Assembly (NCBI RefSeq): GCF_003918875.1
Contig: NW_025765324.1
Location: forward strand, 24,041 to 88,040
DNA length: 64,000 nt
Direction: 5' to 3'
DNA from: Haliotis rubra
Lineage: Eukaryota
The translations under genes were made by a program, and so were the position numbers. Positions 1 through 37,199 of this stretch are shown here, piece by piece (position 1 is the first letter of the stretch; each line of letters opens with the position of its first letter). The notes under the pieces are model-generated. The model worked only from the letters and a program-made list of their open reading frames with translations, was not told the DNA's origin and searched no databases.

Positions 1-2084
1 TTTCTCTTCTCTCTACGGCATGGTTTAACTGCATTTAAACAACTTCCAGTTACCCAACGTTTAACCAGTATTAAGCAAATATTAGATAGTAGTTTGGGAG
101 CTGTGTATCCATTACACATGTAATGGAGCAATGTAAAATCAGACATTATGATATATGTGCCTGAGACGAAATTACAAAATACGGGGCAATTGAAGCAACG
201 CGCTAGTACAGCGTCGCCACACTACAGCAGTATCACTGTGCTACAAGGGGTCACTATGCAAACATCTACGTGTAATACTGCAGCCTGTCCACACGATGAC
301 TGCATGCTTACTATACTGCAGAAATCCCAATACCCTAATATTCTCCCCGAATGTTAACAATCTCACCACACTGAAACAAAATACTACAATAGCTTTATTT
401 CCCAAATGTTATATACATATACTAGTGTCTTTTCACCAAGGGCCTGTCACTATCAATTGTCACAGCACGCATTTAGCTGTGTAAAACAAAGCACCGATGT
501 CTTCTGAAAACAGGATTAGGTTTCCCCTATGACATACAGCATGTTCCCTGGTATTTGTCGACTTTTCTTTGCATGTGTTTCTCACTGGTGTAGCAGAGGG
601 GTTAGGATACACTCACCTCCTTCGCGAACACTTTGTGTCATCACTATTTGATAGAAAGTCATGCACACTTTCCTAGGATATAGTCACAATCGTACAGTGG
701 ACTCTGCCTTTAGTGGATATTCCTGACAATTACATAAAGGGTTGTGTCGCTTTATTTTACACCTATTTTCTTTGAAGTAACTGTGGATTTCTTAATGATA
801 TCGATCTTCTGATGAAACAGAATTCGCTAATCATAAAGGGAACAATTGTACTGAAACATATACTGCTTATTAGCCAAGACACCAGGTGCTAGCCAACAGT
901 TTGTGGCTGTAAATTCGTTTTAATGTTTCATGACCTTTCCATTCGGTCCTTCTTGTGCCAAATTAAATAGATGTTGTCTTTGGATAATGGCTCAACAATT
1001 GCTACAATTCAATGTATATTTAATCACTGTTGCAAGTGATTCACTTCAACTTGTTTTAGGCTTCCGGAGAATGTTTGATCATAAACACCAGTAGAAAGAA
1101 GAAATAGAAAACTCGCCTCTACCCTTTACATATGGCCTTTACATCATGAAAACAGTCTTCTGTGTGTTCATAGATAATGTTACTGTTGCGTTAAAATCAA
1201 TCGTGTCCGATTTGATAAATCTGTACTTTTGATAGTGCATCCAGATAGAAATACTTCTCCTGTTAATTGCATCAGCGGTATGCAAACGGTTAGATTACAT
1301 CATGAAATCAAGAAGTAAACTTCCCATGGAGTGTACAAAATGATTGGTATTGCCATCAACTGTTATCGACTATTCATAGCATGTTCAATAGTAACTTATG
1401 ATTGTAGACCTTTTCATTTTGTTTGTGTGATACATAAACCGATAGCATATGCTAATGTAATGAAATTCCAACTGCTACGCAATCCCTTCTAGTATAGGCA
1501 GTAAGAATACTACAGCATGTGTTTGTTATTTATTCTTCAAGACCATGGTATCAATATTTGTTATCACAGAAACTTAGATATTCATCATCCAAAGGACAAT
1601 GCGTGTTCCGTAAAGAACACTCGCTCAATTTCTAGGACAGGTTACATACTTGCATTCGAATCGAATACTGTGCACACTAGCTACTATTAGATGACTTACT
1701 GCACCCCAACACGGAAATATGACTCAACTCCGGATATTTTCGGATTTCACTATGACATCATCAAGACCCTTCGTGGCAGCACAAATGGTATATTCGCATG
1801 AGACATGGAACCAAGTAAGAGATAGCCTGTATGAAATATGTCAAGCCTAAAATCCCTCCTCTCATATTCAATCTGATTTCGTCAGGACATTCTAAGCATA
1901 TTTCATTAGTTGACACCACTGCTGGAAGCAAAACTGATTACCAGTTAAGTGTTTGGATATCGTTGAATAACACATATATCCAGAGTTAATAATATGGAGA
2001 CATATAGTAACTCGTCCATTTTGTAAACATTGAATTCAGCTTTAAGATTCTCAAACAAAGCACAAATCGTTTGTATTTCAAGTT

Positions 2085-2090
2085 TTATTG
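2085..2090 (-). terminator. AATAAA poly(A) signal of Gly-rich gene copy 1, about 65 nt after the stop. Equivalents lie at 5445-5450 (-), 8788-8793 (-) and 15932-15937 (+).
   Basis: A canonical hexamer in the same position in all four copies. Confidence 0.5.
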
Positions 2091-2155
2091 AACCAATTGT
2101 ATTGTCATGAGTATACAAAATAAATAGTCTTCTTCACACTGCAGGTGACAGTAAC

Positions 2156-2761
2156 TCAGTAGTAGCCGATTCCTGAAACAGAAAAAATAGTTACATATAA
2201 AATTGGGATTTATGGAAAAGTAACATGGAAATGTTGAAACTGCTTGCACCATAAACTATACCAAGCATTTCAAACAGCTGACAACAGTTTTACAGATGTT
2301 TATCAACTGACAACAGCTTATTTGCATAAAATAGTACTAATAAATACATGGGTACATGATATCATTTTATAAAAGTGAAGTTTAAAATGGGATAACAGAA
2401 GAAAGAATGACAGCATGTGTTGTGAAATACCTTTTCCTAGTCCGATTCCGTAGCCTGCCATTCCGTAGAGACCACCATGGCCTCCAAGTCCTCCAAGTCC
2501 TCCAAGTCCTCCATACAGACCTCCCATGCCGTATCCGTATTTGCCTCCGTACAGACCGCCCATTCCTCCGTACAGACCGCCATAGCCTCCGTAAAGACCT
2601 CCCTGCATTCCACCTATTCCGTAGCCTATTCCGCCCATTCCGCCCATTCCGCCCATTCCTCCATACAACCCAGCCATTCCATATGCTCCATACAGACCGG
2701 TTGGCTCAGCAAAGGCGGTAACAGCCAGGCAGGCAACAAGGACGACGACTATTTTCATCAT
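2156..2761 (-). CDS. Secreted Gly/Tyr/Met-rich low-complexity protein (shematrin/prisilkin-like), copy 1. Exon 1 is 2761..2431, exon 2 is 2172..2156, and the product is about 115 aa.
   Basis: ATGATG lies at 2761-2756 (read on the minus strand). The N-terminus MMKIVVVLVACLAVTAFA-EP is a typical signal peptide. The body is GLYGG/GMGG/GLGG repeats. A GT donor sits directly after ...GLGKG (the codon is split g|gt). An acceptor ctgtttcag at 2181-2173 is followed by gaatcggctactactga, which yields ...GIGYY*. The in-frame C-terminus fits the repeat style of the protein. The antisense ORFs over this region are low-complexity artefacts. Confidence 0.7.
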
Positions 2762-3320
2762 TTTGAGTATCTGTTCAGTAACATAAAAATCATCTTCAAG
2801 ACAGGAAAACAACATGTTATCATTACTCGTCTGGAGAATTGACTTCACGCCACTCCTAATGAATAATGTTATCATTTGTCATTTCATATGCATCCACATA
2901 CTGGAAAATTTACAAGAACGGTAAATATTCCTTACTTATTCGTACTTTGATGAATTGGATCAATGTAAAAGTTGAAAAAGGAGAGGTGTGCAGCAGAAGA
3001 ACGAAAACTTCAAAGTATACATGTTTACCACAGGCAAACCTTGACCTGGTACTTACAGTTTGGTGTTAACACGTATCTGTGTCTTAACAGCAGGTGAAAA
3101 TAAGAGATGATAGAATACTTTCCCCTCTCCTATATATATACAATTGGTGGACTATATGTGATTGATTTACCTTGGGCTGGCCACTTCCAGGTAAGCAACA
3201 CACCTTAACGTTAATGATGTAAACTGATCATTCTATTCGCCTCAAAGGTTCTGCCTGAGGTTATCACCCTAAGGCTATACATGTGTGTTGGTATAGATGA
3301 ACGTTCATTTAGGAAGTAGA

Positions 3321-3334
3321 GGGCGGTATATAAT
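3321..3334. promoter_or_regulatory. GC-box (GGGCGG) directly abutting a TATA-like box (TATATAAT) at the unit 1/2 junction. Equivalent motifs lie at 6667-6680, 10017-10030, 14391-14410 and 14736-14750.
   Basis: Perfectly conserved in every unit. It lies about 560 bp upstream (on the minus strand) of the Gly-rich CDS and about 160 bp upstream of a strong donor site (caag|gtaaat, exon end 3171). This suggests a non-coding first exon and a 5'UTR intron. The TATA box is near-palindromic, so the orientation cannot be fixed from sequence alone. Confidence 0.45.
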
Positions 3335-5515
3335 AGGGCGAAGGTGTCTCTTCCTATCTTTCTCTCTCTCTACGGCATGGTTTAACTGCATTTAAACAAC
3401 TTCCAGTTACCCAACGTTTAACCAGTATTAAGCAAATATTAGATAGTAGTTTGGGAGCTGTGTATCCATTACACATGTAATGGAGCAATGTAAAATCAGA
3501 CATTATGATATATGTGCCTGAGACGAAATTACAAAATACGGGGCAATTGAAGCAACGCGCTAGTACAGCGTCGCCACACTACAGCAGTATCACTGTGCTA
3601 CAAGGGGTCACTATGCAAACATCTACGTGTAATACTGCAGCCTGTCCACACGATGACTGCATGCTTACTATACTGCAGAAATCCCAATACCCTAATATTC
3701 TCCCCGAATGTTAACAATCTCACCACACTGAAACAAAATACTACAATAGCTTTATTTCCCAAATGTTATATACATATACTAGTGTCTTTTCACCAAGGGC
3801 CTGTCACTATCAATTGTCACAGCACGCATTTAGCTGTAAAAAAACAAAGCACCGATGTCTTCTGAAAACAGGATTAGGTTTCCCCTATGACATACAGCAT
3901 GTTCCCTGGTATTTGTCGACTTTTCTTTGCATGTGTTTCTCACTGGTGTAGCAGAGGGGTTAGGATACACTCACCTCCTTCGCGAACACTTTGTGTCATC
4001 ACTATTTGATAGAAAGTCATGCACACTTTCCTAGGATATAGTCACAATCGTACAGTGGACTCTGCCTTTAGTGGATATTCCTGACAATTACATAAAGGGT
4101 TGTGTCGCTTTATTTTACACCTATTTTCTTTGAAGTAACTGTGGATTTCTTAATGATATCGATCTTCTGATGAAACAGAATTCGCTAATCATAAAGGGAA
4201 CAATTGTACTGAAACATATACTGCTTATTAGCCAAGACACCAGGTGCTAGCCAACAGTTTGTGGCTGTAAATTCTTTTTTAATGTTTCATGACCTTTCCA
4301 TTCGGTCCTTCTTGTGCCAAATTAAATAGATGTTGTCTTTGGATAATGGCTCAACAATTGCTACAATTCAATGTATATTTAATCACTGTTGCAAGTGATT
4401 CACTTCAACTTGTTTTAGGCTTCCGGAGAATGTTTGATCATAAACACCAGTAGAAAGAAGAAATAGAAAACTCGCCTCTACCCTTTACATATGGCCTTTA
4501 CATCATGAAAACAGTCTTCTGTGTGTTCATAGATAATGTTACTGTTGCGTTAAAATCAATCGTGTCCGATTTGATAAATCTGTACTTTTTGATAGTGCAT
4601 CCAGATAGAAATACTTCTCCTGTTAATTGCATCAGCGGTATGCAAACGGTTAGATTACATCATGAAATCAAGAAGTAAACTTCCCATGGAGTGTACAAAA
4701 TGATTGGTATTGCCATCAACTGTTATCGACTATTCATAGCATGTTCAATAGTAACTTATGATTGTAGACCTTTTCATTTTGTTTGTGTGATACATAAACC
4801 GATAGCATATGCTAATGTAATGAAATTCCAACTGCTACGCAATCCCTTCTAGTATAGGCAGTAAGAATACTACAGCATGTGTTTGTTATTTATTCTTCAA
4901 GACCATGGTATCAATATTTGTTATCACAGAAACTTAGATATTCATCATCCAAAGGACAATGCGTGTTCCGTAAAGAACACTCGCTCAATTTCTAGGACAG
5001 GTTACATACTTGCATTCGAATCGAATACTGTGCACACTAGCTACTATTAGATGACTTACTGCACCCCAACACGGAAATATGACTCAACTCCGGATATTTT
5101 CGGATTTCACTATGACATCATCAAGACCCTTCGTGGCAGCACAAATGGTATATTCGCATGAGACATGGAACCAAGTAAGAGATAGCCTGTATGAAATATG
5201 TCAAGCCTAAAATCCCTCCTCTCATATTCAATCTGATTTCGTCAGGACATTCTAAGCATATTTCATTAGTTGACACCACTGCTGGAAGCAAAACTGATTA
5301 CCAGTTAAGTGTTTGGATATCGTTGAATAACACATATATCCAGAGTTAATAATATGGAGACATATAGTAACTCGTCCATTTTGTAAACATTGAATTCAGC
5401 TTTAAGATTCTCAAACAAAGCACAAATCGTTTGTATTTCAAGTTTTATTGAACCAATTGTATTGTCATGAGTATACAAAATAAATAGTCTTCTTCACACT
5501 GCAGGTGACAGTAAC

Positions 5516-6103
5516 TCAGTAGTAGCCGATTCCTGAAACAGAAAAAATAGTTACATATAAAATTGGGATTTATGGAAAAGTAACATGGAAATGTTGAAAC
5601 TGCTTGCACCATAAACTATACCAAGCATTTCAAACAGCTGACAACAGTTTTACAGATGTTTATCAACTGACAACAGCTTATTTGCATAAAATAGTACTAA
5701 TAAATACATGGGTACATGATATCATTTTATAAAAGTGAAGTTTAAAATGGGATAACAGAAGAAAGAATGACAGCATGTGTTGTGAAATACCTTTTCCTAG
5801 TCCGATTCCGTAGCCTGCCATTCCGTAGAGACCACCATGGCCTCCAAGTCCTCCAAGTCCTCCATACAGACCTCCCATGCCGTATCCGTATTTGCCTCCG
5901 TACAGACCGCCCATTCCTCCGTACAGACCGCCATAGCCTCCGTAAAGACCTCCCTGCATTCCACCTATTCCGTAGCCTATTCCGCCCATTCCGCCCATTC
6001 CTCCATACAACCCAGCCATTCCATATGCTCCATACAGACCGGTTGGCTCAGCAAAGGCGGTAACAGCCAGGCAGGCAACAAGGACGACGACTATTTTCAT
6101 CAT
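5516..6103 (-). CDS. Gly/Tyr/Met-rich secreted protein, copy 2. Exon 1 is 6103..5791, exon 2 is 5532..5516, about 109 aa. It has one fewer GMGG and one fewer GLGG than copy 1.
   Basis: Same structure as copy 1 at an offset of about 3360 bp. It differs from copy 1 only by in-frame 9-nt repeat-unit indels. Confidence 0.7.
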
Positions 6104-8859
6104 TTTGAGTATCTGTTCAGTAACATAAAAATCATCTTCAAGACAGGAAAACAACATGTTATCATTACTCGTCTGGAGAATTGACTTCACGCCACTCCTA
6201 ATGAATAATGTTATCATTTGTCATTTCATATGCATCCACATACTGGAAAATTTACAAGAACGGTAAATATTCCTTACTTATTCGTACTTTGATGAATTGG
6301 ATCAATGTAAAAGTTGAAAAAGGAGAGGTGTGCAGCAGAAGAACGAAAACTTCAAAGTATACATGTTTACCACAGGCAAACCTTGACCTGGTACTTACAG
6401 TTTGGTGTTAACACGTATCTGTGTCTTAACAGCAGGTGAAAATAAGAGATGATAGAATACTTTCCCCCCTCTCCTATATATATATACAATTGGTGGACTA
6501 TATGTGATTGATATACCTTGGGCTGGCCACTTCCAGGTAAGCAACACACCTTAACGTTAATGATGTAAACTGATCATTCTATTCGCCTCAAAGGTTCTGC
6601 CTGAGGTTATCACCCTAAGGCTATACATGTGTGTTGGTATAGATGAACGTTCATTTAGGAAGTAGAGGGCGGTATATAATAGGGCGAAGGTGTCTCTTCC
6701 TATCTTTCTCTTCTCTCTACGGCATGGTTTAACTGCATTTAAACAACTTCCAGTTACCCAACGTTTAACCAGTATTAAGCAAATATTAGATAGTAGTTTG
6801 GGAGCTGTGTATCCATTACACATGTAATGGAGCAATGTAAAATCAGACATTATGATATATGTGCCTGAGACGAAATTACAAAATACGGGGCAATTGAAGC
6901 AACGCGCTAGTACAGCGTCGCCACACTACAGCAGTATCACTGTGCTACAAGGGGTAACTATGCAAACATCTACGTGTAATACTGCAGCCTGTCCACACGA
7001 TGACTGCATGCTTACTATACTGCAGAAATCCCAATACCCTAATATTCTCCCCGAATGTTAACAATCTCACCACACTGAAACAAAATACTACAATAGCTTT
7101 ATTTCCCAAATGTTATATACATATACTAGTGTCTTTTCACCAAGGGCCTGTCACTATCAATTGTCACAGCACGCATTTAGCTGTAAAAAACAAAGCACCG
7201 ATGTCTTCTGAAAACAGGATTAGGTTTCCCCTATGACATACAGCATGTTCCCTGGTATTTGTCGACTTTTCTTTGCATGTGTTTCTCACTGGTGTAGCAG
7301 AGGGGTTAGGATACACTCACCTCCTTCGCGAACACTTTGTGTCATCACTATTTGATAGAAAGTCATGCACACTTTCCTAGGATATAGTCACAATCGTACA
7401 GTGGACTCTGCCTTTAGTGGATATTCCTGACAATTACATAAAGGGTTGTGTCGCTTTATTTTACACCTATTTTCTTTGAAGTAACTGTGGATTTCTTAAT
7501 GATATCGATCTTCTGATGAAACAGAATTCGCTAATCATAAAGGGAACAATTGTACTGAACACATACTGCTTATTAGCCAAGACACCAGGTGCTAGCCAAC
7601 AGTTTGTGGCTGTAAATTCGTTTTTAATGTTTCATGACCTTTCCATTCGGTCCTTCTTGTGCCAAATTAAATAGATGTTGTCTTTGGATAATGGCTCAAC
7701 AATTGCTACAATTCAATGTATATTTAATCACTGTTGCAAGTGATTCACTTCAACTTGTTTTAGGCTTCCGGAGAATGTTTGATCATAAACACCAGTAGAA
7801 AGAAGAAATAGAAAACTCGCCTCTACCCTTTACATATGGCCTTTACATCATGAAAACAGTCTTCTGTGTGTTCATAGATAATGTTACTGTTGCGTTAAAA
7901 TCAATCGTGTCCGATTTGATAAATCTGTACTTTTGATAGTGCATCCAGATAGAAATACTTCTCCTGTTAATTGCATCAGCGGTATGCAAACGGTTAGATT
8001 ACATCATGAAATCAAGAAGTAAACTTCCCATGGAGTGTACAAAATGATTGGTATTGCCATCAACTGTTATCGACTATTCATAGCATGTTCAATAGTAACT
8101 TATGATTGTAGACCTTTTCATTTTGTTTGTGTGATACATAAACCGATAGCATATGCTAATGTAATGAAATTCCAACTGCTACGCAATCCCTTCTAGTATA
8201 GGCAGTAAGAATACTACAGCATGTGTTTGTTATTTATTCTTCAAGACCATGGTATCAATATTTGTTATCACAGAAACTTAGATATTCATCATCCAAAGGA
8301 CAATGCGTGTTCCGTAAAGAACACTCGCTCAATTTCTAGGACAGGTTACATACTTGCATTCGAATCGAATACTGTGCACACTAGCTACTATTAGATGACT
8401 TACTGCACCCCAACACGGAAATATGACTCAACTCCGGATATTTTCGGATTTCACTATGACATCATCAAGACCCTTCGTGGCAGCACAAATGGTATATTCG
8501 CATGAGACATGGAACCAAGTAAGAGATAGCCTGTATGAAATATGTCAAGCCTAAAATCCCTCCTCTCATATTCAATCTGATTTCGTCAGGACATTCTAAG
8601 CATATTTCATTAGTTGACACCACTGCTGGAAGCAAAACTGATTACCAGTTAAGTGTTTGGATATCGTTGAATAACACATATATCCAGAGTTAATAATATG
8701 GAGACATATAGTAACTCGTCCATTTTGTAAACATTGAATTCAGCTTTAAGATTCTCAAACAAAGCACAAATCGTTTGTATTTCAAGTTTTATTGAACCAA
8801 TTGTATTGTCATGAGTATACAAAATAAATAGTCTTCTTCACACTGCAGGTGACAGTAAC

Positions 8860-9455
8860 TCAGTAGTAGCCGATTCCTGAAACAGAAAAATAGTTACATA
8901 TAAAATTGGGATTTATGGAAAAGTAACATGGAAATGTTGAAACTGCTTGCACCATAAACTATACCAAGCATTTCAAACAGCTGACAACAGTTTTACAGAT
9001 GTTTATCAACTGACAACAGCTTATTTGCATAAAATAGTACTAATAAATACATGGGTACATGATATCATTTTATAAAAGTGAAGTTTAAAATGGGATAACA
9101 GAAGAAAGAATGACAGCATGTGTTGTGAAATACCTTTTCCTAGTCCGATTCCGTAGCCTGCCATTCCGTAGAGACCACCAAGTCCTCCAAGTCCTCCAAG
9201 TCCTCCATACAGACCTCCCATGCCGTATCCGTATTTGCCTCCGTACAGACCGCCCATTCCTCCGTACAGACCGCCATAGCCTCCGTAAAGACCTCCCTGC
9301 ATTCCACCTATTCCGTAGCCTATTCCGCCCATTCCGCCCATTCCGCCCATTCCTCCATACAACCCAGCCATTCCATATGCTCCATACAGACCGGTTGGCT
9401 CAGCAAAGGCGGTAACAGCCAGGCAGGCAACAAGGACGACGACTATTTTCATCAT
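8860..9455 (-). CDS. Gly/Tyr/Met-rich secreted protein, copy 3. Exon 1 is 9455..9134, exon 2 is 8876..8860, about 112 aa.
   Basis: Same structure as copies 1 and 2. It lacks the HGG motif and has a different count of Leu-Gly-Gly units. Confidence 0.7.
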
Positions 9456-9989
9456 TTTGAGTATCTGTTCAGTAACATAAAAATCATCTTCAAGACAGGA
9501 AAACAACATGTTATCATTACTCGTCTGGAGAATTGACTTCACGCCACTCCTAATGAATAATGTTATCATTTGTCATTTCATATGCATCCACATACTGGAA
9601 AATTTACAAGAACGGTAAATATTCCTTACTTATTCGTACTTTGATGAATTGGATCAATGTAAAAGTTGAAAAAGGAGAGGTGTGCAGCAGAAGAACGAAA
9701 ACTTCAAAGTATACATGTTTACCACAGGCAATACCTTGACCTGGTACTTACAGTTTGGTGTTAACACGTATCTGTGTCTTAACAGCAGGTGAAAATAAGA
9801 GATGATAGAATACTTTCCCCCTCTCCTATATATATACAATTGGTGGACTATATGTGATTGATTTACCTTGGGCTGGCCACTTCCAGGTAAGCAACACACC
9901 TTAACGTTAATGATGTAAACTGATCATTCTATTCGCCTCAAAGGTTCTGCCTGAGGTTATCACCCTAAGGCTATACATGTGTGTTGGTA

Positions 9990-12900
9990 TAGATGAACGT
10001 TCATTTAGGAAGTAGAGGGCGGTATATAATAGGGCGAAGGTGTCTCTTCCTATCTTTCTCCTCTCTCTACGGCATGGTTTAACTGCATTTAAACAACTTC
10101 CAGTTACCCAACGTTTAACCAGTATTAAGCAAATATTAGATAGTAGTTTGGGAGCTGTGTATCCATTACACATGTAATGGAGCAATGTAAAATCAGACAT
10201 TATGATATATGTGCCTGAGACGAAATTACAAAATACGGGGCAACTGAAGCAACGCGCTAGTACAGCGTCGCCACACTACAGCAGTATCACTGTGCTACAA
10301 GGGGTCACTATGCAAACATCTACGTGTAATACTGCAGCCTGTCCACACGATGACTGCATGCTTACTATACTGCAGAAATCCCAATACCCTAATATTCTCC
10401 CCGAATGTTAACAATCTCACCACACTGAAACAAAATACTACAATAGCTTTATTTCCCAAATGTTATATATAAGGTTCTGCCTAGGGTTATTACCCTAAGG
10501 GCATACAAGAGTGTTGGTATACATGAACAGTCACTTAAGGTTGCTTCACACTTATTTCGAATTTACAGCAATCGGGGAGAATCGGCCAGAAAAAAATAGT
10601 TCCAAAATTCGAACCGCATTCGTGAGACAATTTTTTCAAGCTTTGCTATCTGACGTTTCTGTGACAGATGGTGACGTTTTTATGCGATTCGGCGGTGTTC
10701 TGATGACGGCAGGGCTCATTTGAAGAGCATTCGGGACATTCTGAATGCATTCCAGGTGTATTCGAGGTACATTGGAGCTGTATTTCAACTTCAATCGAAA
10801 TGTTCCGATACATTTGAAGAATATTTGAACTCCAGCAGCAATCAAGATACATTCCGACTCATTCGAGGCATTCTGACAGGATTTGAAGTGGCTTGTCTTT
10901 TCTATTCTCCCTCGAATATGTTCAGATTACTTAGAATGCAGTCAGAATGCAGTAAGAATACTTAGAATGCAGTTCGAATGCACCTCAAAAGCCGGTCGAT
11001 ATTTTTCCACTTCGAATGTACCTCGAAAGTTTTGAACATGTTCAAAACATTCGGGCATATTATATTACATGAATTGACCCGAATAGTTGGAATGCATTCG
11101 GAATGCAGTAAGAAGTTTTAGAATTCAGTTCGAATATCCAGGAATCTCCAGAAATTTTCATTCCGACAGCATTCCGGCTCATTCCGCCGTAATGTACTAC
11201 GAGTGAGACTTTAATAAACCTGTGTGTCTGCCGTATGTACAGCCGGTTAATGAAGCAAAAACAAGTACAATTACCTAATCCGTTATCGATAATTGATGTT
11301 CGGAGTCGGAGACTGAAGCATCGGATTAATGAATCAACAATTGATGTGTTTCTACAGTAAATAAGATTGGTTACAGCTTGAGTCAGTTCAGATAGCGAGG
11401 GAATCGGATTATTGGGGACCGGACTAAGGCGGCCTGACTGTATTATTATTCCGGCGTTTTTACTTCCAATCATAACTCAAGAACCAATTAGATGCGTTTC
11501 CAAAACATCATCAAGGTGCCCCTGCAGTCCCGTAGCACGTAAGAGTAAGGAGAGAAAAGGAAAACATGATTCCTTGAAGCCAAGGAGCCATATTGATTAA
11601 GTCGTATCACCAGCGGGCTGTGCAAACACCGTTCGGTTCAGCTAAGGCCACTAAAGAGAAAGTGCCCTTGACAGTTGGAACAACGGGTTCTTGTTCCTTA
11701 AGAATATTTTTCCCGTGGTATCAAATTATATTCTATGATCCATTATTATGAGCTGTGAAAGAAATTGAATCCAAATCAAATCACATAACTTCTATTTGTA
11801 AATCTCTACACTGGAATCATGTTCCATCTCACAATAACTTTCATATCATCCGAATTCTCAAAGGGTAACCTGGTACTAAAGGACCAATTCACATATAGAA
11901 CACGGAGCCTACATCGCTGCTCTCAGCTATATTTTGACCTGAAATTGAATTATTAAAATCAATTTTGAATTATCTGCCCTTTGTCCTTGAACCTTGAACC
12001 TTGAACCTAGAGATGTTTGTGGTAAGCTTCAGGAACAGGTACACCTTGTTGTTTTTGTGATGAGATTCTGACCTCTGTTTTTTTAGTATGATTGGAACAA
12101 AAAACGGCGGAATAATGATACTAATAAATAATAAATCGAACGATTACAATAGGACTCCTGCCTTTCAGGCATGGAGCCCTAAAAAAATACAGAAAAGGAC
12201 AAAAGACAACACATATGAAAACTATATTCCAACTATCTCTCCAACAAAGGTCGTATCTTCACAAAACAATATAGCGGTATCAGTAACAATTTCTGGTGTC
12301 TCCCGCCGTGATATTGCTGGAATATTGCTAAAAGCGGCGTAAAATCATACTCACTCACTCACTCACTCACAAAACAACATAGCGGTATCAGTAACGATGC
12401 ACATGGTTATAATATCACATATGTAGATGAAAGTTTCTTCTACGTAAAAGAAGGGATCTTCTATGTAGATGAAAGTATCTTGTTTGTTTTAGTTCAACAC
12501 CGCACTCAGCAATATTGTGCACAACCATGTGACTGCTGTCTCTAAATAATCGAGTATGGACCAGATATTGTGTGGACCAGAGACTCACTTCATGGGCATC
12601 GATCTACGCATCTGTAATACGATGTCATGCATCAACCAAGGCGGCGAGCCTGTGACCACCCAATCTCGTGGTCACAGCATGTGTTGATGAAGTCCAATTC
12701 AGACCCGGGAAAGAGAGTGAGTTTAGTTTAACGCTGCACCCAGCAATATTCCAGCTATCTGTAAATAATCGACTCTGGAATTCATACCTGGATCTTCACG
12801 GGTAATCACTTACGTAGATAAAAGTGTCTTCAACGTAGATGAAAGTATCATCTACTTAGACGAAAGTATCTTTAAAGAAGGTGACAAAAACAATGAAGAC

Positions 12901-14428
12901 TATGACCTCAAAAACGGTTCCATAAAATAGTTTATGAAGCGGAGTAAAATGTCCGTCTTCGGTTCATTGAAATTAGCGAGGGGACAGAAAGTTGACTTCG
13001 ACTGCCGCTGGTGTCGAGCCTGATAACAACGTGTCAACGGGGCCAAGTTCGAATCTAAGGCTTAAGGAACTGCCACTCCGAGAGAAAATTCTTGTACCAG
13101 GAGTGAATCCCACGAATAGGGTAGAGTCTAACATTGCCAGAAAACTACTCATCCGCTGGTGCCTCAGAAGCCCTGATCGAGATGCTCTATTACATACCGC
13201 CCTCTACTTCCTAAGACCCCCGTCACACAATTACGGCGGAATGAGCCGGAATGCTGTCGGAATGAAAATTTCTGGAGATTCATGGAAATTCGAACTGAAT
13301 TCTAAAACTTCTTACTGCATTCCGAATGCATTCCAACTATTCGGGTCAATTCATGTAATATGCCCGAATGTTTTGAACATGTTCAAAACTTTCGAGGTAC
13401 ATTCGAAGTGGAAAAATATCGACCGGCTTTTGAGGTGCATTCGAACTGCATTCTAAGTATTCTTACTGCATTCTGACTGCATTCTAAGTAATCTGAACAT
13501 ATTCGAGGGAGAATAGAAAAGACAAGCCACTTCAAATCCTGTCAGAATGCCTCGAATGAGTCGGAATGTATCTTGATTGCTGCTGGAGTTCAAATATTCT
13601 TCAAATGTATCGGAACATTTCGATTGAAGTTGAAATACAGCTCCAATGTACCTCGAATACACCTGGAATGCATTCAGAATGTCCCGAATGCTCTTCAAAT
13701 GAGCCCTGCCGTCATCAGAACACCGCCGAATCGCATAAAAACGTCACCATCTGTCACAGAAACGTCAGATAGCAAAGCTTGAAAAAATTGTCTCACGAAT
13801 GCGGTTCGAATTTTTGGAACTATTTTTTTCTGGCCGATTCTCCTCGATTGCTGTAAATTCGAAATAAGTGTGAAGCAGCCTTAGTGACTGTTCATGTATA
13901 CCAACACTCTTGTATGCCCTTAGGGTAGGTAATAACCCCAGGCAGAGCCTTATATATAACATTTGGGAAATAAAGCTATTGTAGTATTTTGTTTCAGTGT
14001 GGTGAGATTGTTAACATTCGGGGAGAATATTAGGGTATTGGGATTTCTGCAGTATAGTAAGCATGCAGTCATCGTGTGGACAGGCTGCAGTATTACACGT
14101 AGATGTTTGCATATTGACCCCTTGTAGCACAGTGATACTGCTGTAGTGTGGCGACGCTGTACTAGCGCGTTGCTTCAATTGTCCCGTATTTTGTAATTTC
14201 GTCTCAGGCAAATATGTCATAATGTCTGATTTTACATTGCTCCATTACATGTGTAATGGATACACAGCTCCCAAACTACTATCTAATATTTGCTTAATAC
14301 TGGTTAAACGTTGGGTAACTGGAAGTTGTTTAAATGCAGTTAAACCATGCCGTAGAGAGAGGAGAAAGATAGGAAGAGACACCTTTCGCCCTATTATATA
14401 CCGCCCTCTACTTCCTAAATGAATGTTC
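9990..14428. repeat. Large palindrome. The left arm (about 9990-11192) and the right arm (about 13226-14428) are inverted copies. The spacer (about 11193-13225) is about 2 kb.
   Basis: Identical ORF pairs appear on opposite strands: 10720..10965(+) = 13453..13698(-), 10636..10845(-) = 13573..13782(+), 10202..10411(+) = 14011..14220(-), and 9907..10200(-) = 14222..14422(+). The symmetry centre is about 12209. Each arm consists of unit-junction sequence plus a ~727-bp GAATG/CATTC-rich low-complexity segment (10466-11192). Confidence 0.9.
12478..12812 (-). mobile_element. Two diverged, partly deleted SINE-A copies in the palindrome spacer. A SINE tail fragment (ctggaatattgctaaaagcggcgtaaaa + (ACTC)n) also lies at 12312-12370.
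   Basis: They match the SINE-A consensus seen at least 12 times in the window. Short gtagatgaaagt subrepeats flank them. Confidence 0.6.
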
Positions 14429-14633
14429 ATGTATAAATGCGAGTAGTGACTATTGTTAGTGACAGTCCATTTTGGTAAAATAGATACCTGTACATGTATG
14501 TAACATACAGCCAGTATAGTCGTGGGATTGTTGACATTCAGGGTGAATATCATGCTGTTGGGATTTCTGCAGAGTAGTAAGCAGGCGGTCATCGTGTGGA
14601 TTGACTGCAGCATCAAACGTAGTGATACTGCTA

Positions 14634-14727
14634 GAGAGAGAGAGAGAGACAGAGAGAGAAGGAGAGAGAGAGGGAGAGAGAGAAAGAGAGAGAGAGAATG
14701 AGAGAGTGAGTGATAGAGAGAGAGAGG
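14634..14727. repeat. (GA)n microsatellite.
   Basis: A direct run of agagagag. Confidence 0.95.
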
Positions 14728-15294
14728 AGCACTCTATTATATACCGCCCTCTACTCCCGAAATGAATGTTCATGTATACCAACACACATGTCCACCCTCA
14801 GGGTGATAACCTCAGGCAGACCCGTTGAGGCGAAAACAAATGATCAGCTTACATCATTAACGTTAAGGTGTGTTGCTTACCTGGAAGTGGCCAGCCCAAG
14901 GTAAATCAATCACATATAGTCCACCAGTTGTATATAAAGGAGAGGGAAAAGGTATTCTATCATCTCTTAATCACCTGCTGTTAAGACACAGATACGCGTT
15001 AACACCAAACTGTAAGTACCGTTTCAAGGTTTGCTGTGGTAAATATGTATACCTTGAAGTTGTCGTTCTTCTGCTGCACAACTCTCCTTTATCAACTTTA
15101 CATTGGTCCAATTCATCAAAGTGCGAATAAGTAAGGCATCTGTACATTTGGAAGTATGTGGATGCACATGAAATAAAAAAATGATAACATTATTCATTAG
15201 GAGTGGCGTGAAGTCAATTCTCCAGACGAGTAATGATAACATGTTGTTTTCCTGTCTTGAAGATGATTTTTATGTTACTGAACAGATACTCAAA

Positions 15295-15866
15295 ATGATG
15301 AAGATAGTCGCCGTCCTTGTTGCCTGCCTGGCTGTTACCGCCTTTGCTGAGCCAACCGGTCTGTATGGAGCATATGGAATGGCTGGGTTGTATGGAGGAA
15401 TGGGCGGAATAGGCTACGGAATAGGTGGAATGCAGGGAGGTCTTTACGGAGGCTATGGCGGTCTGTACGGAGGAATGGGCGGTCTGTACGGAGGCAAATA
15501 CGGATACGGCATGGGAGGTCTGTATGGAGGACTTGGAGGACTTGGAGGCCATGGTGGTCTCTACGGAATGGCAGGCTACGGAATCGGACTAGGAAAAGGT
15601 ATTTCACAACACATGCTGTCATTCTTTCTTCTGTTATCCCATTTTAAACTTCACTTGTATAAAATGATATCATGTATTTATTAGTACTATTTTATGCAAA
15701 TAAGCTGTTGTCAGTTGATAAACATCTGTAAAACTGTTGTCAGCTGTTTGAAATGCTTGGTATAGTTTATGGTGCAAGCAGTTTCAACATTTCCATGTTA
15801 CTTTTCCATAAATCCCAATTTTATATGTAACTATTTTTTCTGTTTCAGGAATCGGCTACTACTGAG
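15295..15866 (+). CDS. Gly/Tyr/Met-rich secreted protein, copy 4, in the inverted unit. Exon 1 is 15295..15598, exon 2 is 15850..15866, about 106 aa (MKIVAV variant).
   Basis: ATGATG at 15295-15300. Donor g|gt at 15598/15599. Acceptor ctgtttcag at 15841-15849, then gaatcggctactactga. AATAAA at 15932-15937. A candidate 5'UTR acceptor ttactgaacag ends at 15285, 10 nt before the ATG. Confidence 0.7.
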
Positions 15867-17079
15867 TTACTGTCACCTGCAGTGTGAAGAAGACTATTTA
15901 TTTTGTATACTCATGACAATACAATTGGTTCAATAAAACTTGAAATACAAACGATTTGTGCTTTGTTTGGGAAATCTTAAAGCTGAACTGAAAATTCACA
16001 AAATGGCCAAGCCATCTAGGTTTCTTGATAGAGAAAGAGATTGGCAGTTGAGTGAATTAATTTCATTTCATCAATAAATGGACCCACACTCGGGAATACC
16101 CCACCGCCCCTCATCAATGGATGGACCCATACTCGTCAAATACGACTGACTGCTACATAAAACAACATTTACTCACAATTGTGTCATAATGACATTGAAA
16201 ATGACAAAGCCATGATCGCAAATTGGAACAATTTATTTACTTTATAATATTTCAGAAAGACTGGACAAGTTCAACAGCAGTATTCTAAAGCATCGGAGAT
16301 GGTTTATCATGATAACTAATGAAATGTTGTTTCTAAAATGTTTGACAAATGAGGAACCAACATGCAGTAGTGTGGAGGCTAATATACTGATTATATATTT
16401 ATCAAACAATTGTTGAAAAGAATAGGCCTGAGCAAGGTAAACAGTATAGGAGTTCTCTCCCTTGATCCACAACAGCCTCAGTCCTGCAAAATGAAGTAAA
16501 CAGGCCAAAAGCAACTAAAAGATTTCTAACACATGACAGGAACAAGCACTGAAATTGCATTGTGTAACACAATAATAATTAAAAGGCACTCCATGCACCA
16601 TTTAAAAATGATATTAAATATTGATGTAAGATATGAAATAAATTAATACTTTTCGTCTACCTATTTCTTCAGGCAGCAACTGACATGTTTACTGACTTAA
16701 ACACTCTATTATTATTGAATTTAGTAATATGGAACAAAACATAGAACAAAAAGCTATCAGTTAATTTGTTTAAATAACTGTTCAAATCCAAAGTAAACCT
16801 GTAGTTTCAGTTCCAACACAACACTACCACTTAAAGCCTTTCTCTGAGATAACGAATATTTCTTCATAACACCCCCAGATATATCCAATGTTTGTCTTGT
16901 TAACCTGATCAACAAATACAATGTATACACACAAACAAAATATGGCCTACCCACTCTAACCATCCAAGAAACATTTGGTAAGTCTAACATTTTTCGATAT
17001 CGATTTCGATCTGCTGTTACCTTTTCTTAAAAACTTTGACTCTTCTTTAGCACTATAGTGTGTGCAAACCCTGAGACAA

Positions 17080-17492
17080 CATCGACAACCCATCTGCAGA
17101 CAACCCATCTGCAGACAACCCATCTACCCATCTACAGACAACCCATCTGCAGTCAACACATCTGCAGACAACCCATCTGCAGACAACCCATCTACAGACA
17201 ACCCATCTGCAGTCAACACATCTACAGACCATCTGCAGACAACCCATCTACAGACAACCAACTGCAGATAACCCATCTGCAGTCAACGCATCTGCAGTCT
17301 ACCCATCTGCAGTCAACGCATCTGCAGACAACCCATCTGCAGACAACCCATCTGCAGACAACCCATCTGCAGTCAACCCATCTGCAGACAACCCATCTGC
17401 AGACAACCCATCTGCAGTTAACCCATCTGCAGACAACCCATCAGCAGTCAACCCATCTGCAGACAACCATCTGCAGACAACCCATCTACAGA
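17080..17492. repeat. Minisatellite with a 15-bp unit (cagacaacccatctg), about 27 copies.
   Basis: Visible periodicity. The ORFs 17058..17630 and 17053..17247 are artefacts of it. Confidence 0.9.
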
Positions 17493-17681
17493 GAATTCAC
17501 GAGTACAAGACACAACCAAGGCACTGGAAAGTCAGTCAGATGTTTCCCAGATTCAACAGCCAGACTGATTGGCATATCTTGTTATCACAATGTCTGGTCA
17601 TGTTTCAAGATAATATCTGCTGGTGTTTGATAATGTCTATTGGCAACATCTGGTGTTTCTGTTTTGTGATAATGTCAGCAA

Positions 17682-18480
17682 TTATTGCCGCCTGATCCTG
17701 CGTCTCTGTCCACCATTGTAAGGCTGGTACCGACAACGGTTGAAGTCCACATGCCGAGCCATCTGTTCAAAGTTGTTGTTGCTGTAGGGATGCCACTGGA
17801 AGTTGTCCCTGGATCCAAGGTCTGTCACAAAGCTGCTGTTATCCATGATTTGGCCATACCCACAATCATTTCTCAGCTTCCTGTTGGTGTCCATTGTCTG
17901 TCTGTTTAGAGTGCCACGGTTTATGTTCATGGGGTTGATGTCCTTCAACATTCGGTTCACATCAAGGTTTAGTGGGCGACGTTGGGGCCGAACAGGCTGT
18001 TCCTGTCTGTTCAAAACCTGAGGCAATGCTCGGGAAGGAATGGTGTTACATCCAAAACGAAATATCTCCGGGTTCTTTTCCTGGTTTTTCTGGACATTGC
18101 CAGGGAGATGGAAGCCCCAGGCATCCGAGATGTGAGTCAGCAGCAGGTTGGTAATGCGCCGATGAGCTGTCATGTCCCAGTGTATGCCGTCATCGGCACG
18201 GCGGTGAAGCTGATACCGCAGGAAGTAATGCAGGTCAAGAACATCAAAGTCATTTTCAACCACAACCTTGGCTGCATAATAGTTGGCTTCCAGGATGTCC
18301 AAACGCAGAGTGGAGTTCATGAATTCAATCTCAGGGATTATGAAACCACCCCGAGCATTCTTTGAAATGGGAAGTGTAGTGTTCCAGATGACCAGAGAGT
18401 CAGCAGGCAGCACCTCCTTGAACCGCCTGAACAATGTCTTCAGGTTCTCTTTGTACTCATCGATAGCTTTCACACCATAC
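17682..18480 (-). CDS. PCED1: PCED1-like terminal exon. It encodes (R)YGVKAIDEY…LVIWNTTLPI…FDVLDLHYF…DGIHWD…LLLTHISDAWGFHLPG plus a long C-terminal tail and stop.
   Basis: Acceptor ctgtgttgcag| with a phase-2 start at 18480. It carries conserved SGNH/PC-esterase block III (VIWNT) and the DxxH catalytic motif (DGIHWD). The stop is at 17684-17682. Confidence 0.85.
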
Positions 18481-19639
18481 CTGCAACACAGAAACGTATG
18501 ATCTAACCAAACACATACATTTGCACACAATCACTGAACAGGTCACTAAGTGTGGCAGCTCTTGGTCTGTACAGGTCCCAAGCAACCAAAGCTGGACAAC
18601 GTAACAGATGAGGTAGTCGGGCAGGGTGACCTGGTTGCTTGCATGTCATCATACACCATTGGTAAAGATCTTTGCTCATGACATCAATAAATGGATTGTA
18701 TGGTTTGGACTTAAAGGGACACAGACCTTTGTATTTCTCCAAGACTGGTTGTTGCCTTTGTTGTATTTTTAATGTTGACCAGCAAATCGACCAAGGGCAG
18801 CTAATGAGACCTCTCTGGCAGCTATAGACAGCCTGGGTAAAGCTTGGGATTAGTGCCCCTTTAATTATAATAATTACAGGCTTTATGATGTCACTGGAAT
18901 ACAGCCAAGTGTAGATGCTAACACTGTTATCAAGCAAGTGATAACGATGTTAGAATATACACTGAAACAGCACATCTATTGCAAAAAAGAAGTTGTCTAT
19001 CCATGAAATTATACCAGCTTCTAAATGCCACTTAAAGAAGTTATACTGCAAAGTGTGGCATTAGATCACACACAAACCCACAAACGAACAGCTTATCATT
19101 ATCTGTGAAGGATGAGGTGGTTGAACACTTAACAAGAATATTTTAAGATTGTAGTATTCATGTTAGGATAACAATCATTTCTGGATATGACCCGATGTAT
19201 CAGTGAATTACTAGTATTTACTTGGTCAGACACTAAAAAGACCCTCACCAAATCACAGCCATTTAGTTCGGTGTGGGTGGTAAAAAACTATGCTAGTTAA
19301 AGATGAATTATACAAGTTTGTTGGTTAGTTAATGTCACACTCAGCCGCATTCCAGATATATGACAGCATTTTCTAAATAATCAGTGACAGACTTCATGAG
19401 CATCGATCTACACAGCTGACATAACAAATACATTTAATCAGCGAAGTCACCAAGTCCTGTTAACTGCCTCTTTGGACAAACAAGGGTTGATGAGAAATAT
19501 TCTAACCAAGATTACCACTGACCGCCAAATTCAGTTGCCTCTTATGACCCTTTCAACCCAAGGCTCTTCAAGGCCTAGATTCATAAGCATTATCATTATC
19601 ACACAATACTTTAAGATTGACAATCATCATCTAAGTTAC

Positions 19640-25124: not shown

Positions 25125-25995
25125 CAGGGTCTCAATGACTTTCTTTACAGTGAGTCACTCATTAGGGTTTCAGATTTGTTCTATTACAGTGAGTCACTCT
25201 AACAGGTTTCAGATTTGTTGAAATTACAGTGAGTGACATAGCAGGGTTTCTGATTTGTAGCAATACAGTAGTCTTTGTCAGACAGAGTTTGTCTACAAAC
25301 TCTATGACAGTTTCAGATTTGTTCTTTTACAGTGAGTCACTCTATAGCAGGGTTTCAGATTTGTTCTTTTACAGAGAGTCACTCTATAGCAGGGTTTCAG
25401 ATTTGTTCTTTTACAGAGAGTCACTCAACTTCAGTATTTCAGATTTGTTCTACTACAGAGAGTCACTCTATTGCAGGGTTTCAGATTTGTTCTTTTACAG
25501 AGAGTCACTCAACTTCAGTATTTCAGATTTGTTCTACTACAGAGAGCCACTCTATAGCAGGGTTTCAGATTTGTTCTTTTACAGTGAGTCACTCTATAGC
25601 AGGGTTTCAGATTTGTTCTTTTACAGAGAGTCACTCTATAGCAGGGTTTCAGATTTGTTCTTTTACAGTGAGTCACTCTATAGCAGGGTTTCAGATTTGT
25701 TCTTTTACAGAGAGTCACTCTATAGCAGGGTTTCAGATTTGTTCTTTTACAGTGAGTCACTCTATAGCAGGGTTTCAGATTTGTTCTTTTACAGAGTCAC
25801 TCACTCTACTTCAGTATTTCAGATTTGTTCTATTACAGAGAGTCACTCTATTGCAGTATTTCAGATTTGTTCTACTACAGAGAGTCACTCTATTGCAGTA
25901 TTTCAGATTTGTTCTTCAACAGTGTCCCTATCTCTATAGAAGAGTTTCAGATTTGTTCTTTTTCTGTGAGTCACTCTTCAGCAGGGTTTCACTAA
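25125..25995. repeat. Minisatellite with a 42-bp unit (agcagggtttcagatttgttcttttacagagagtcactctat), about 20 copies, inside a PCED1 intron.
   Basis: Visible periodicity. The ORFs 25229..25939, 25332..26096 and 25515..25760 are artefacts of it. Confidence 0.9.
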
Positions 25996-37020: not shown

Positions 37021-37199
37021 ATTCTGACCTAGTCTCTCGTACAGACCCTGAAGCAATTATATCCAAGAAAGCCCACGCAAGTCTAGAAAATGTGGCAAGT
37101 CTAGATTTCCTCAGCTTCAGGGCTCCTTTTCATTATATTATATTTTTCTTTACTATGAACATTTTTCAGTAAATTATGTTCATTTCAGAGACTAGTTGT

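Follow-up and report, generated by a model that had tools for sequence, protein, structure and literature searches.

A probable lineage-specific inverted segmental duplication bordering a tandem gene array in abalone

The right-hand edge of a tandem array of glycine-rich protein genes in the abalone Haliotis rubra carries a long inverted repeat, which probably represents a lineage-specific interstitial inverted segmental duplication with patchy gene conversion. It was analysed in a 64-kb stretch of DNA, referred to below as the window. The two arms carry intact genes and differ from each other in a mosaic manner, the inverted copy is absent from the orthologous locus of Haliotis asinina, and the DNA distal to the repeat has been kept. 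The inverted segmental duplication is real but of an ordinary kind, neither a fragile palindrome nor a flipped array, and it offers a small, clean example of a tandem gene family growing and rearranging at its edge.

The direct array and its genes

A direct tandem array, repeating about every 3350 bp, occupies positions 1..10469 of the window, with units starting at 1, 3359, 6705 and 10055, the fourth of which is cut at unit position 415. The first-pass annotation had let the array end inside unit 4 at 10465, in agreement with the end of 10469 found by self-BLAST. The same comparison gave 99.2-99.5% identity between units (99.2% for 1-7119 against 3359-10469, 99.5% for 1-3772 against 6705-10469). 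Each full unit contains one minus-strand gene for a glycine-rich protein, and tblastn located these copies at 2761-2417, 6103-5777 and 9455-9120. Their closest protein is the 'glycine-rich protein-like' protein of H. asinina (E = 3e-24), and the units encode small secreted Gly/Tyr/Met-rich proteins of this Haliotis type. Exact-protein look-ups with unspliced ORFs of the window retrieved no record. All four gene copies of the window, the inverted one included, splice into intact products of 106-115 aa. With head-to-tail units, intact homologous genes and an orthologous array in a related species, the locus is a tandem gene array, in which internal units are 99.2-100% identical while the copies at the edges are diverged or rearranged.

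The last complete gene of the array, U3, lies on the minus strand with CDS exon 1 at 9455..9134, exon 2 at 8876..8860 and an AATAAA signal at 8793; this splice structure was derived from the H. asinina gene model together with the sequence. Gene U3 and its 5' region form the left outer arm of the inverted repeat (8752..9987, minus strand, delimited by global alignment of the arms). The 5' region would correspond to a putative intron 1 and a non-coding exon 1, and the promoter and exon 1 of the array genes are likewise presumptive assignments. For a TATA-driven exon 1, positions of about 9995-9967 and 14765-14800 are predicted.

Anatomy of the inverted repeat

The inner part of the repeat pairs 9988-11193 with the reverse complement of 14435-13230. 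These arms of 1206 bp each differ by 13 substitutions (98.9% identity) and 5 small indels, BLAST identity being 97.9% when gaps are included, so that the earlier figure of at least 99% was slightly too high. The repeat is centred on 12211.5, in line with the mirror point of about 12209 noted before, and its arms enclose a single-copy spacer of 2036 bp (11194..13229). Each inner arm is made of 482 bp of unit DNA and a 724-bp GAATG-rich segment, which also bears out the initial description (unit DNA plus 727 bp). The arms of about 1.2 kb proposed there do form a real inverted repeat, but the inverted homology is about twice as long, with mosaic identity, and pairs 8752-11193 with 15973-13230 (2442 and 2744 bp by global alignment). 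Having reverse-complement arms and a unique spacer, the structure is a spaced inverted repeat or inverted segmental duplication.

In the left inner arm, the unit-derived part (9988..10469, plus strand) runs to unit position 415, is 98.3-98.8% identical to 14435-13953 and includes a TATA-containing 28-bp motif, a putative promoter, at 10005-10032. Its counterpart in the right inner arm is an apparently young inverted unit copy (13953..14435, minus strand), which spans the DNA between unit position 415 and the promoter motif (14391-14418) and is 98.3-98.8% identical to all units. The right outer arm (14779..15973, plus strand) consists of a 5' region and an intact inverted gene copy, R. The CDS of R (15295-15865, plus strand) comprises exon 1 at 15295..15598 and exon 2 at 15849..15865, is followed by AATAAA at 15932 and specifies a product of 106 aa. 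The body of R is 99.2-99.5% identical to the units and its 5' region 90-91%. The right arm alone has an additional 343 bp, an (AG)47 tract, an in-frame deletion of 18 bp and a V6A change. Unit homology ends at about 16006 and nothing unit-like is found further out, with gene R placed between the old array flank and the neighbouring PCED1A-like gene. The array therefore does not continue in inverted orientation, as had been thought: a single partial unit with one gene is inverted. Of the head-to-head flip that had been proposed, what stands is the head-to-head placement of two genes; the orientation of the array itself is unflipped.

The 343-bp right-arm-only segment (14436..14778, minus strand) is an old copy of unit positions ~250-476, degraded to 73.7% identity with the units; it contains the (AG)47 tract, which has expanded (14633-14726), and, at 14734-14761, a second right-arm promoter motif. 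The segment crosses the unit 415/416 tandem junction uninterrupted, like the internal units, and was therefore copied from an already tandem array.

The non-array segment X of the left arm (10470..11193, plus strand) differs by 6 substitutions from its inverted copy X' in the right inner arm (13230..13952, minus strand). It holds 20 GAATG/CATTC pentamers in its 724 bp, the density over the whole window being 3.1 per kb. The first 60-67 bp (10471-10537) resemble the putative exon 1 of the unit at 84% identity. For the rest of X, nhmmer and Smith-Waterman searches with shuffles found no homolog in the unit, the rest of the window or the H. asinina and H. cracherodii loci, and further copies of X are absent from the 64-kb window and from about 98 kb of four other Haliotis loci. 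GAATG-dense spots in loci L002 and L004 were rejected as X homologs, as they are unrelated micro- or minisatellites. Segment X also contains an 81-aa ORF (10720..10965, plus strand) with a twin on the minus strand at 13453-13698. The identity of the two ORFs on opposite strands, pointed out in the first-pass annotation, is genuine and is due only to their position inside a 453-bp identical block. The ORF is not taken as a gene because it begins with TTG (a start in the bacterial code), has its first in-frame ATG only at residue 66 and, like the other ORFs of the arms and spacer, matched no Pfam family.

Mosaic identity and gene conversion

Identity between the arms differs from part to part, at about 99% over the complete gene, about 90% over the gene 5' region and 98.9-100% over the inner 1.2 kb. 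Expressed as differences, these are 6/790 for the gene body, 35/401 for the 5' region and 13/1194 for the inner arm, and both the gene body (Fisher p = 5e-12) and the inner arm (Fisher p = 2e-12) depart from the 5' region. The old upstream piece, with 51 differences in 194 positions, stands apart from the young one, with 7 in 480 (p = 7e-23). As the near-identical gene body takes in an intron of 250-258 bp and the 3'UTR, selection is no explanation for it. A 453-bp block within the non-array segment (10604-11056) is 100% identical to the other arm, and with 18 differences distributed along 1206 bp a perfect run of this length would arise by chance with p = 0.0035. The opposite arm is the sole possible donor of this block within the window, and the block marks a recent exchange within the arm. 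The mosaic supports gene conversion from arm to arm, for which mosaic identity and the perfect block are the two signs found. Homologous exchange between the arms is plausible as conversion and possibly also as inversion of the spacer.

Judged by divergence, the inverted copy has two age layers. The old layer comprises the 5' region (~9% diverged) and the degraded upstream unit piece (~26%). In the young layer, divergence is 0.5-0.8% for the gene body and ~1% for the inner 1.2 kb, which includes the GAATG-rich segment. The three-way site count for the old upstream piece is 19/9/37, with 37 changes specific to the right arm versus 9 specific to the array; so long a private branch is unexpected, and a simple clock does not account for it. 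An origin of this piece before the split from H. asinina, suggested by its 73.7% identity against 82.6% for H. asinina, was considered and rejected in view of the site count and the absence of the copy from that species.

Comparison with Haliotis asinina

The orthologous array of H. asinina (locus L003) lies on the same strand with a period of about 3.18 kb, is about 81% identical to the window units and ends in a gene-less last unit. The core blocks of the spacer (11524-11824 and 12452-12859) match L003 at 21204-20902 and 20888-20475, colinear with the PCED1A side, and represent ancestral array flank common to both species. The same colinearity holds beyond the repeat, where the distal flank with the last exon of a PC-esterase domain-containing 1A-like (PCED1A-like) gene (16192..18631, minus strand, ORF 17682-18530), convergent with gene R, corresponds to L003 18099-17175 and 17140-16123. 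At L003 there is no inverted gene copy, no X and no promoter motif. Since H. asinina lacks both the inverted copy and the GAATG-rich segment at this locus, the duplication is lineage-specific, a comparison which rests on H. asinina as the one informative outgroup locus; in H. cracherodii no array is present within 10 kb of PCED1A. In the 5' region, both arms agree against H. asinina at 55 sites, the right arm and H. asinina against the left arm at 10, and the left arm and H. asinina against the right arm at 21. These patterns group the inverted copy with the array of the window, after the split from H. asinina.

Origin of the inverted copy

In the preferred explanation, the last array gene would have been copied in reverse orientation together with its promoter region and some flank, and placed beyond about 2 kb of pre-existing array flank, before the PCED1A-like gene, leaving two intact genes head to head. 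The young layer would stem from non-reciprocal exchange, that is, gene conversion of the inverted copy with the array or the left arm, and in addition from one of two events, a second, small inverted duplication covering 9988-11193 or a deletion within an inverted copy that was at first longer. As a second duplication and a deletion with conversion both predict the present-day sequence, the copy may have arisen in one step or in two, presumably by replication-based template switching or by fold-back. Past 11193 the left arm continues with GTACTACG and the right arm, read inwards, with TGTGTGAC, so that 0 bp are shared. The signature of a fold-back is lacking, as no inverted microhomology was found at this inner junction (11193/13230); the older junction is no longer readable.

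A variant nested within this explanation, which we consider possible though rather unlikely, assumes a single older inverted duplication of about 1.7 terminal units and the GAATG-rich flank. Within the right arm, an internal deletion would then have removed the inner gene and joined unit position 476 to the promoter-proximal 17 bp, and all near-identity would be owed to later conversion. The right-arm-only segment does have the structure of a unit's upstream end joined to the promoter and upstream end of the following unit, the 45 bp around the two right-arm promoter motifs are 96% identical, with the outer 17 bp closer to each other than to the left arm, and the 453-bp perfect block shows that arm-to-arm conversion occurs. 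Yet conversion would have to homogenise about 2 kb and spare about 0.75 kb, and the 26% divergence of the old upstream piece is explained no better than by two steps. Near-identical repeats at array edges assemble poorly, and a mis-join or a fold-back chimeric read could yield an apparent palindrome; such an artefact is nevertheless very unlikely here. Chimeric fold-back reads give perfect palindromes without a spacer, whereas 13 substitutions and 5 indels distinguish these arms, which have 2 kb of unique DNA between them. The right arm has its private features and about 9% divergence in the 5' region, the spacer and distal flank keep their expected order and are colinear with H. asinina, and the window contains no Ns.

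It is highly improbable that the structure is an unstable long palindrome produced by breakage-fusion-bridge cycles or fold-back at an amplifying locus and now acting as a fragile site through its secondary structure, even if the locus is amplified as a tandem array and fold-back inverted duplications typically have a single-copy spacer of a few kb (PMC3907307). Because the spacer core and the distal DNA (16192-18631) are colinear with H. asinina, nothing distal has been lost, contrary to what breakage-fusion predicts, and the inner junction lacks inverted microhomology. Of the two origins named in the first-pass annotation, inverted duplication is accordingly kept and breakage-fusion dropped. 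Its view of the repeat as an unstable hotspot is overstated for a spacer of 2036 bp, which lies far outside the range for fork stalling or breakage at eukaryotic inverted repeats. Palindromes fragile through secondary structure have no spacer in eukaryotes or one of only tens of bp; according to a review (PMC7999016), hairpin formation is limited by an Okazaki initiation zone of 100-200 nt, fork stalling was already lost with a spacer of 52 bp, and Ty inverted repeats of 6 kb are stable in wild-type yeast when 280 bp apart. The older layers have, moreover, lasted long enough to diverge by 9-26%. With a 2-kb spacer, the arms are expected to be a substrate for homologous exchange and not a hairpin or cruciform fragile site. 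It is scarcely credible that X, spacer and X' together (10470-13952) are a foldback-like transposable element with terminal inverted repeats of about 0.7 kb inserted in the array. Long terminal inverted repeats, an internal region with other repeats and the untraced origin of X would suit such an element. Its flanks, however, are inverted unit DNA with the same degree of similarity between them as between X and X', no target-site duplication is seen, no further copy of X occurs in the window or the four Haliotis loci, and the spacer core is ancestral, lying at the orthologous H. asinina position without X. A simple transposon insertion had already been dismissed, correctly, on the grounds that the unit DNA flanking the GAATG-rich segment is inverted rather than direct.

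It is a long shot that the inverted repeat is transcribed across the spacer, for example rightwards from the nearly palindromic TATA motif at 10005-10032. The transcript would then fold back through a stem of about 1.2 kb into a hairpin RNA, giving small RNAs against the promoter-proximal region shared by all array genes. Such self-regulators (hpRNAs) are known from inverted duplicates in Drosophila, and if the idea were true, the hairpin RNA would be a regulator of this type for the amplified gene family. In a milder variant, arm exchange may flip the 2-kb spacer, as a polymorphism.

Relation to known systems

Human fold-back inverted duplications have spacers of 766-70,466 bp (median 3.4 kb) and, like breakage-fusion products, are accompanied on their distal side by a terminal deletion or a translocation (PMC3907307). 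The abalone locus resembles those of Hermetz et al. 2014 (PMC3907307) in having inverted copies around a non-duplicated spacer of about 2 kb, within their range of 0.77-70 kb. They are, by contrast, terminal, with distal deletion and a dicentric intermediate, whereas the distal DNA in abalone is intact. Template-switch inverted duplications (FoSTeS/MMBIR-type, as in the human DUP-TRP/INV-DUP class; PMC4352052, PMC11293582) also place an inverted copy a few kb from its source, keep the distal sequence and have complex junctions, possibly paralleled here by a short templated insert (the 28-bp motif at 13187-13214). Unlike them, the abalone locus has no triplication and no microhomology at its one cleanly readable junction; they are de novo clinical rearrangements and it is an evolutionary structure, fixed or polymorphic, whose mechanism is deduced from the end product alone.

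In mammals, the arms of X/Y palindromes are far longer than 2.4-2.8 kb. They share with the abalone repeat the inverted arms with intact multi-copy genes, the unique spacer and a conversion-type identity pattern. The differences are that the abalone arms measure only 2.4-2.8 kb, that their identity is patchy (74-100%) and not uniformly above 99%, that the structure is not conserved in the one comparable species and that one arm is the end of a direct array, itself a possible conversion donor. Two reports (PMC3723533, PMC8327919) attribute arm identities above 99-99.9% in X/Y palindromes to conversion. Tandem arrays under concerted evolution have homogeneous internal units and diverged or rearranged edges, as do the right arm of the window and the gene-less last unit of H. 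asinina. The abalone edge copy differs from these in being inverted and still converted in patches.

The abalone inverted duplication opens no new question. It adds an inverted extra copy with two age layers and statistical support for conversion between inverted copies in a mollusc region of autosomal type. For annotation it yields four intact glycine-rich protein genes, of which one lies on the opposite strand, and it cautions that a 'palindrome' does not equal fragility when the spacer spans kilobases.

The spacer and its repeats

The spacer had been described as 2 kb long with SINEs. It measures 2036 bp, carries only a weak internal inverted repeat besides SINE fragments, and includes three fragments of an interspersed repeat with at least 10 other copies in the window. 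This repeat qualifies as a SINE by its dispersed copies of ~250 bp (at least 10 in the window), its simple-repeat tail and its consensus end (GAGT)n/(ACTC)n; for a Pol III (tRNA-like) head, Rfam at gathering thresholds and ARAGORN gave no matches on the whole window. One fragment is a 5'-truncated SINE tail with a (CTCA)n end (12285..12372, plus strand), where 32-bp direct repeats (12259-12290 and 12367-12398, 94% identical) surround the truncated element at 12291-12366 as a target-site duplication, seen for this one copy only. The other two are old SINE-like fragments of the same family (12476..12790, minus strand), ~70% identical to the window consensus and situated inside a 21-bp minisatellite, at a locus common to H. 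asinina.

An isolated copy of the promoter motif (27/28; 13187..13214, minus strand) lies in the spacer, separated by 15 bp from the right arm's inner edge and without flanking unit homology, and is not accounted for by the main explanation. The adjoining spacer was considered as an older decayed unit and rejected as such, as the match is confined to the 31-bp motif, which scores 27 where shuffled sequences reach at most 15. In H. cracherodii, a different element shares the tail of the SINE (L004 7200-7500) and has, by eye, what appears to be a tRNA-like end.

Structure of the array edge

The edge of the abalone glycine-rich-protein gene array in this window is a genuine inverted segmental duplication with evidence of conversion between the inverted copies. 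In a self-comparison of the window, the array is a direct tandem one of ~3350-bp period; its units start at 1, 3359, 6705 and 10055, are 99.2-99.5% identical and end at 10469, i.e. at position 415 of unit 4. By the same comparison, 9988-11193 is the reverse complement of 14435-13230, with arms of 1206 bp each on either side of a 2036-bp spacer (11194-13229, centre 12211.5). Between these inner arms there are 13 substitutions and 5 small indels (98.9% identity by substitutions, 97.9% with gaps), and each arm is made up of 482 bp of unit DNA and a 724-bp non-array segment with 20 GAATG/CATTC pentamers, ~9 times the window average. The first-pass annotation had described this 1.2-kb repeat of unit DNA and GAATG-rich segment essentially correctly, coordinates included, but missed the outward extension of the inverted homology that a global alignment shows, as far as 8752 in the left arm and 15973 in the right.

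Identity across this alignment is a mosaic. It is ~99% between 8752-9568 and 15973-15182, 83-97% (~90% overall) between 9569-9987 and 15180-14779, and 96-100% in the inner 1206 bp, which contain a 453-bp perfect block at 10604-11056, while 343 bp of the right arm (14436-14778) have no colinear partner. The outer end of the homology lies ~35-40 bp beyond the AATAAA signal, which implies that the whole gene was copied, and the two terminal genes stand head to head with both 5' ends facing the spacer. The array itself does not continue in inverted orientation, as had been proposed, because self-comparison of the window finds no unit-like sequence past ~16006 and a protein-level scan detects no more than four copies of the gene, of which just one is on the plus strand and the other three are on the minus strand; there is a single inverted partial unit.

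The 81-aa ORFs in the GAATG-rich segment start with TTG in an ORF tool using the bacterial code, have their first in-frame ATG at residue 66 and match no Pfam family. As the 453-bp perfect block covers most of each, their identity is uninformative beyond that of the arms.

Genes of the array

Each unit carries one small two-exon gene, and the encoded protein opens with a signal-peptide-like stretch (MMKIVVVLVACLAVTAFA) and goes on with GLYGG/GMGG repeats. Its closest matches among proteins are two Haliotis asinina "glycine-rich protein-like" entries (E = 3e-24), the first of which is encoded in a same-strand tandem array on chromosome CM074540.1 with a period of ~3.18 kb and DNA ~81% identical to the window units. 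With splicing modelled on the H. asinina gene, all four window copies yield intact products (115, 109, 112 and 106 aa), the length varying within one array with the number of in-frame 9-bp repeats encoding GMG and GLG triplets. The minus-strand copies lie at 2156-2761, 5516-6103 and 8860-9455, the last of them having the coding sequence 9455..9134 + 8876..8860; that of the inverted, plus-strand copy is 15295..15598 + 15849..15865. A 28-bp motif with TATATAA is found ~550 bp upstream of every ATG, with 25 of its 28 positions kept in H. asinina; it is a putative core promoter, followed by a putative short non-coding exon and a putative intron. At a second H. asinina locus 2.5 Mb away (CM074540.1, 4.82-4.84 Mb), a related glycine-rich gene of 123 aa and three 148-aa genes occur in mixed orientations, so that opposite-strand paralogs are also present elsewhere in the neighbourhood of the gene family.

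Comparison with H. asinina and content of the spacer

Distal to the inverted copy, the minus-strand ORF 17682-18530 represents the final exon of a PC-esterase domain-containing 1A-like (PCED1A-like) gene; the identity of its product is 85% with the protein of H. asinina and 87% with that of H. cracherodii, which makes the source of the window a third Haliotis species. The H. asinina PCED1A locus shares its chromosome and strand with the array and lies ~45 kb (7,304,160 to 7,349,623) beyond the array locus. Followed in the window's direction, it holds pieces of array units at 27037-26668 and, at 21542-21438, a small unit relic whose end is unit position 474; then come homologs of the spacer blocks 11524-11824 and 12452-12859 at 21204-20475, a homolog of window 16192-17117 at 18099-17175 and finally the PCED1A exon. 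This locus carries no gene copy, GAATG-rich segment or promoter motif. Because these homologs are colinear there without an inverted copy, the core of the spacer is old array-flank DNA. On this sequence comparison, the inverted copy is an insertion between the array flank and PCED1A; the window lineage has it and H. asinina lacks it. Spacer orientation in this haplotype matches that in H. asinina.

If continuous, the H. asinina array may extend over ~66 kb (7.284-7.350 Mb). The gene is missing from its last unit near PCED1A, where unit position 1918 is joined to 208, and together with the unit relic beside the spacer homolog this indicates edge decay there too.

The earlier statement that the spacer holds SINEs is reasonable: three fragments (12285-12372, 12476-12708 and 12709-12790) belong to a ~250-bp interspersed family with a (GAGT)n/(ACTC)n end and at least 10 other copies in the window, and 12259-12398 comprises a 76-bp 5'-truncated SINE tail between unusually long 32-bp direct repeats (94% identical). 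ARAGORN and Rfam scans of the window gave no hit to a tRNA-like head. The H. asinina ortholog lacks much of 11825-12451. A weak inverted repeat inside the spacer (11440-11524 / 12036-12121, 72% over 88 bp), bracketing ~680 bp, may be an old MITE-like element. A lone copy of the promoter motif (13187-13214, minus strand), matching at 27 of 28 positions, lies in the spacer 15 bp short of the inner edge of the right arm, with no other unit homology nearby and no counterpart at the orthologous H. asinina locus; template switching at a rearrangement junction might have left it as a templated insertion.

Age layers and gene conversion

In three-way site patterns with H. asinina as outgroup, the 5' region has 55 sites at which both arms agree against H. 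asinina, 10 at which the right arm agrees with it against the left and 21 at which the left agrees with it against the right; the same patterns number 82/4/1 in the gene body and 77/4/2 in the young unit part. These counts place the origin of the inverted copy after the H. asinina lineage had split off, and its 5' region has diverged by ~9% since. By comparison, the gene body, including a 250-258 bp intron and the 3'UTR, has 4-6 differing sites in ~800 (p = 5e-12 against the 5' region) and the inner arm 13 in 1194 (p = 2e-12). Selection was rejected as the cause of the near-identity, since it cannot make an intron nearly identical beside a 9%-diverged 5' region, and gene conversion or more recent copying is required. 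Moreover, the 453-bp perfect run in the non-array segment is longer than expected from the arm's 18 differences (p = 0.0035). As the other arm is the sole possible donor for this segment within the window, the run points to recent exchange between the arms.

An older layer is preserved in the 343 bp private to the right arm. Read in the left arm's orientation, these contain, in turn, another promoter motif (14761-14734), a CT/AG tract expanded to 47 repeats and a strongly diverged copy, with 73.7% identity to the units, of unit positions ~250-476. The old copy crosses the 415/416 junction like internal units, so it was templated on an already tandem array; it ends at ~476, near the end (474) of the H. 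asinina relic beside the spacer, and meets the young 1.2 kb at 14435/14436. This old fragment of upstream unit DNA (14436-14632), which adjoins the expanded (AG)47 microsatellite, carries 37 right-arm-private changes versus 9 array-lineage changes at the same sites, an acceleration on the right-arm side. Two histories would fit: either the terminal gene underwent an old inverted duplication and 9988-11193 then a second one, or a single larger inverted duplication of ~1.7 units plus flank was followed by internal deletion; patchy conversion comes last in both.

Origin and stability

An origin by breakage-fusion had been suggested for the repeat. Products of terminal fold-back or breakage-fusion show a deletion or translocation on the distal side (PMC3907307), and since the distal DNA is retained here, such an origin is excluded. 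Nor is the repeat the fragile palindrome it was taken for, because 2036 bp separate the arms and the old layers have lasted to 9-26% divergence. Secondary-structure instability of inverted repeats drops steeply as the spacer lengthens: fork stalling at inverted Alus in eukaryotic cells is already abolished by a 52-bp spacer, and in wild-type yeast, Ty inverted repeats of 6 kb are stable when 280 bp separate them (PMC7999016). The behaviour expected here is homologous exchange between the arms, i.e. conversion and possibly spacer inversion. A mis-assembly is very improbable, as the window contains no Ns, the two arms are not identical, numerous features are private to the right arm, and the order of array, spacer, distal flank and PCED1A is the same in another species; all of this argues for a real structure. 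Of the palindrome first described, the inner 1.2-kb structure thus stands, without the flipped array, the breakage-fusion or the instability. The locus is a new instance of known phenomena, namely tandem-array edge rearrangement, interstitial inverted duplication and conversion between inverted repeats.

Other features of the window

Two large minisatellite arrays occupy 34437-38406 and 48067-49906, one with a 31-bp unit repeated ~129 times and the other with a 30-bp unit repeated ~60 times and an extreme GC skew of -0.76. Further tandem repeats lie at 17084-17492 (15 bp x 28), 20177-21710 (174 bp x 8.9) and 25310-25991 (42 bp x 16). Sequences homologous to the 174-bp repeat occur within or close to the PCED1A locus of both H. 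asinina and H. cracherodii, at differing positions relative to the last exon. An intron-less 355-aa ORF on the minus strand (60561-61628) has a Nanos RNA-binding zinc-finger domain (PF05741, E = 1.1e-22) and is therefore a nanos homolog. Two long plus-strand ORFs of 239 and 467 aa (50103-50822 and 51564-52967), without a Pfam match, resemble each other at their starts and in their C-terminal regions and may represent exons of uncharacterised paralogous genes.
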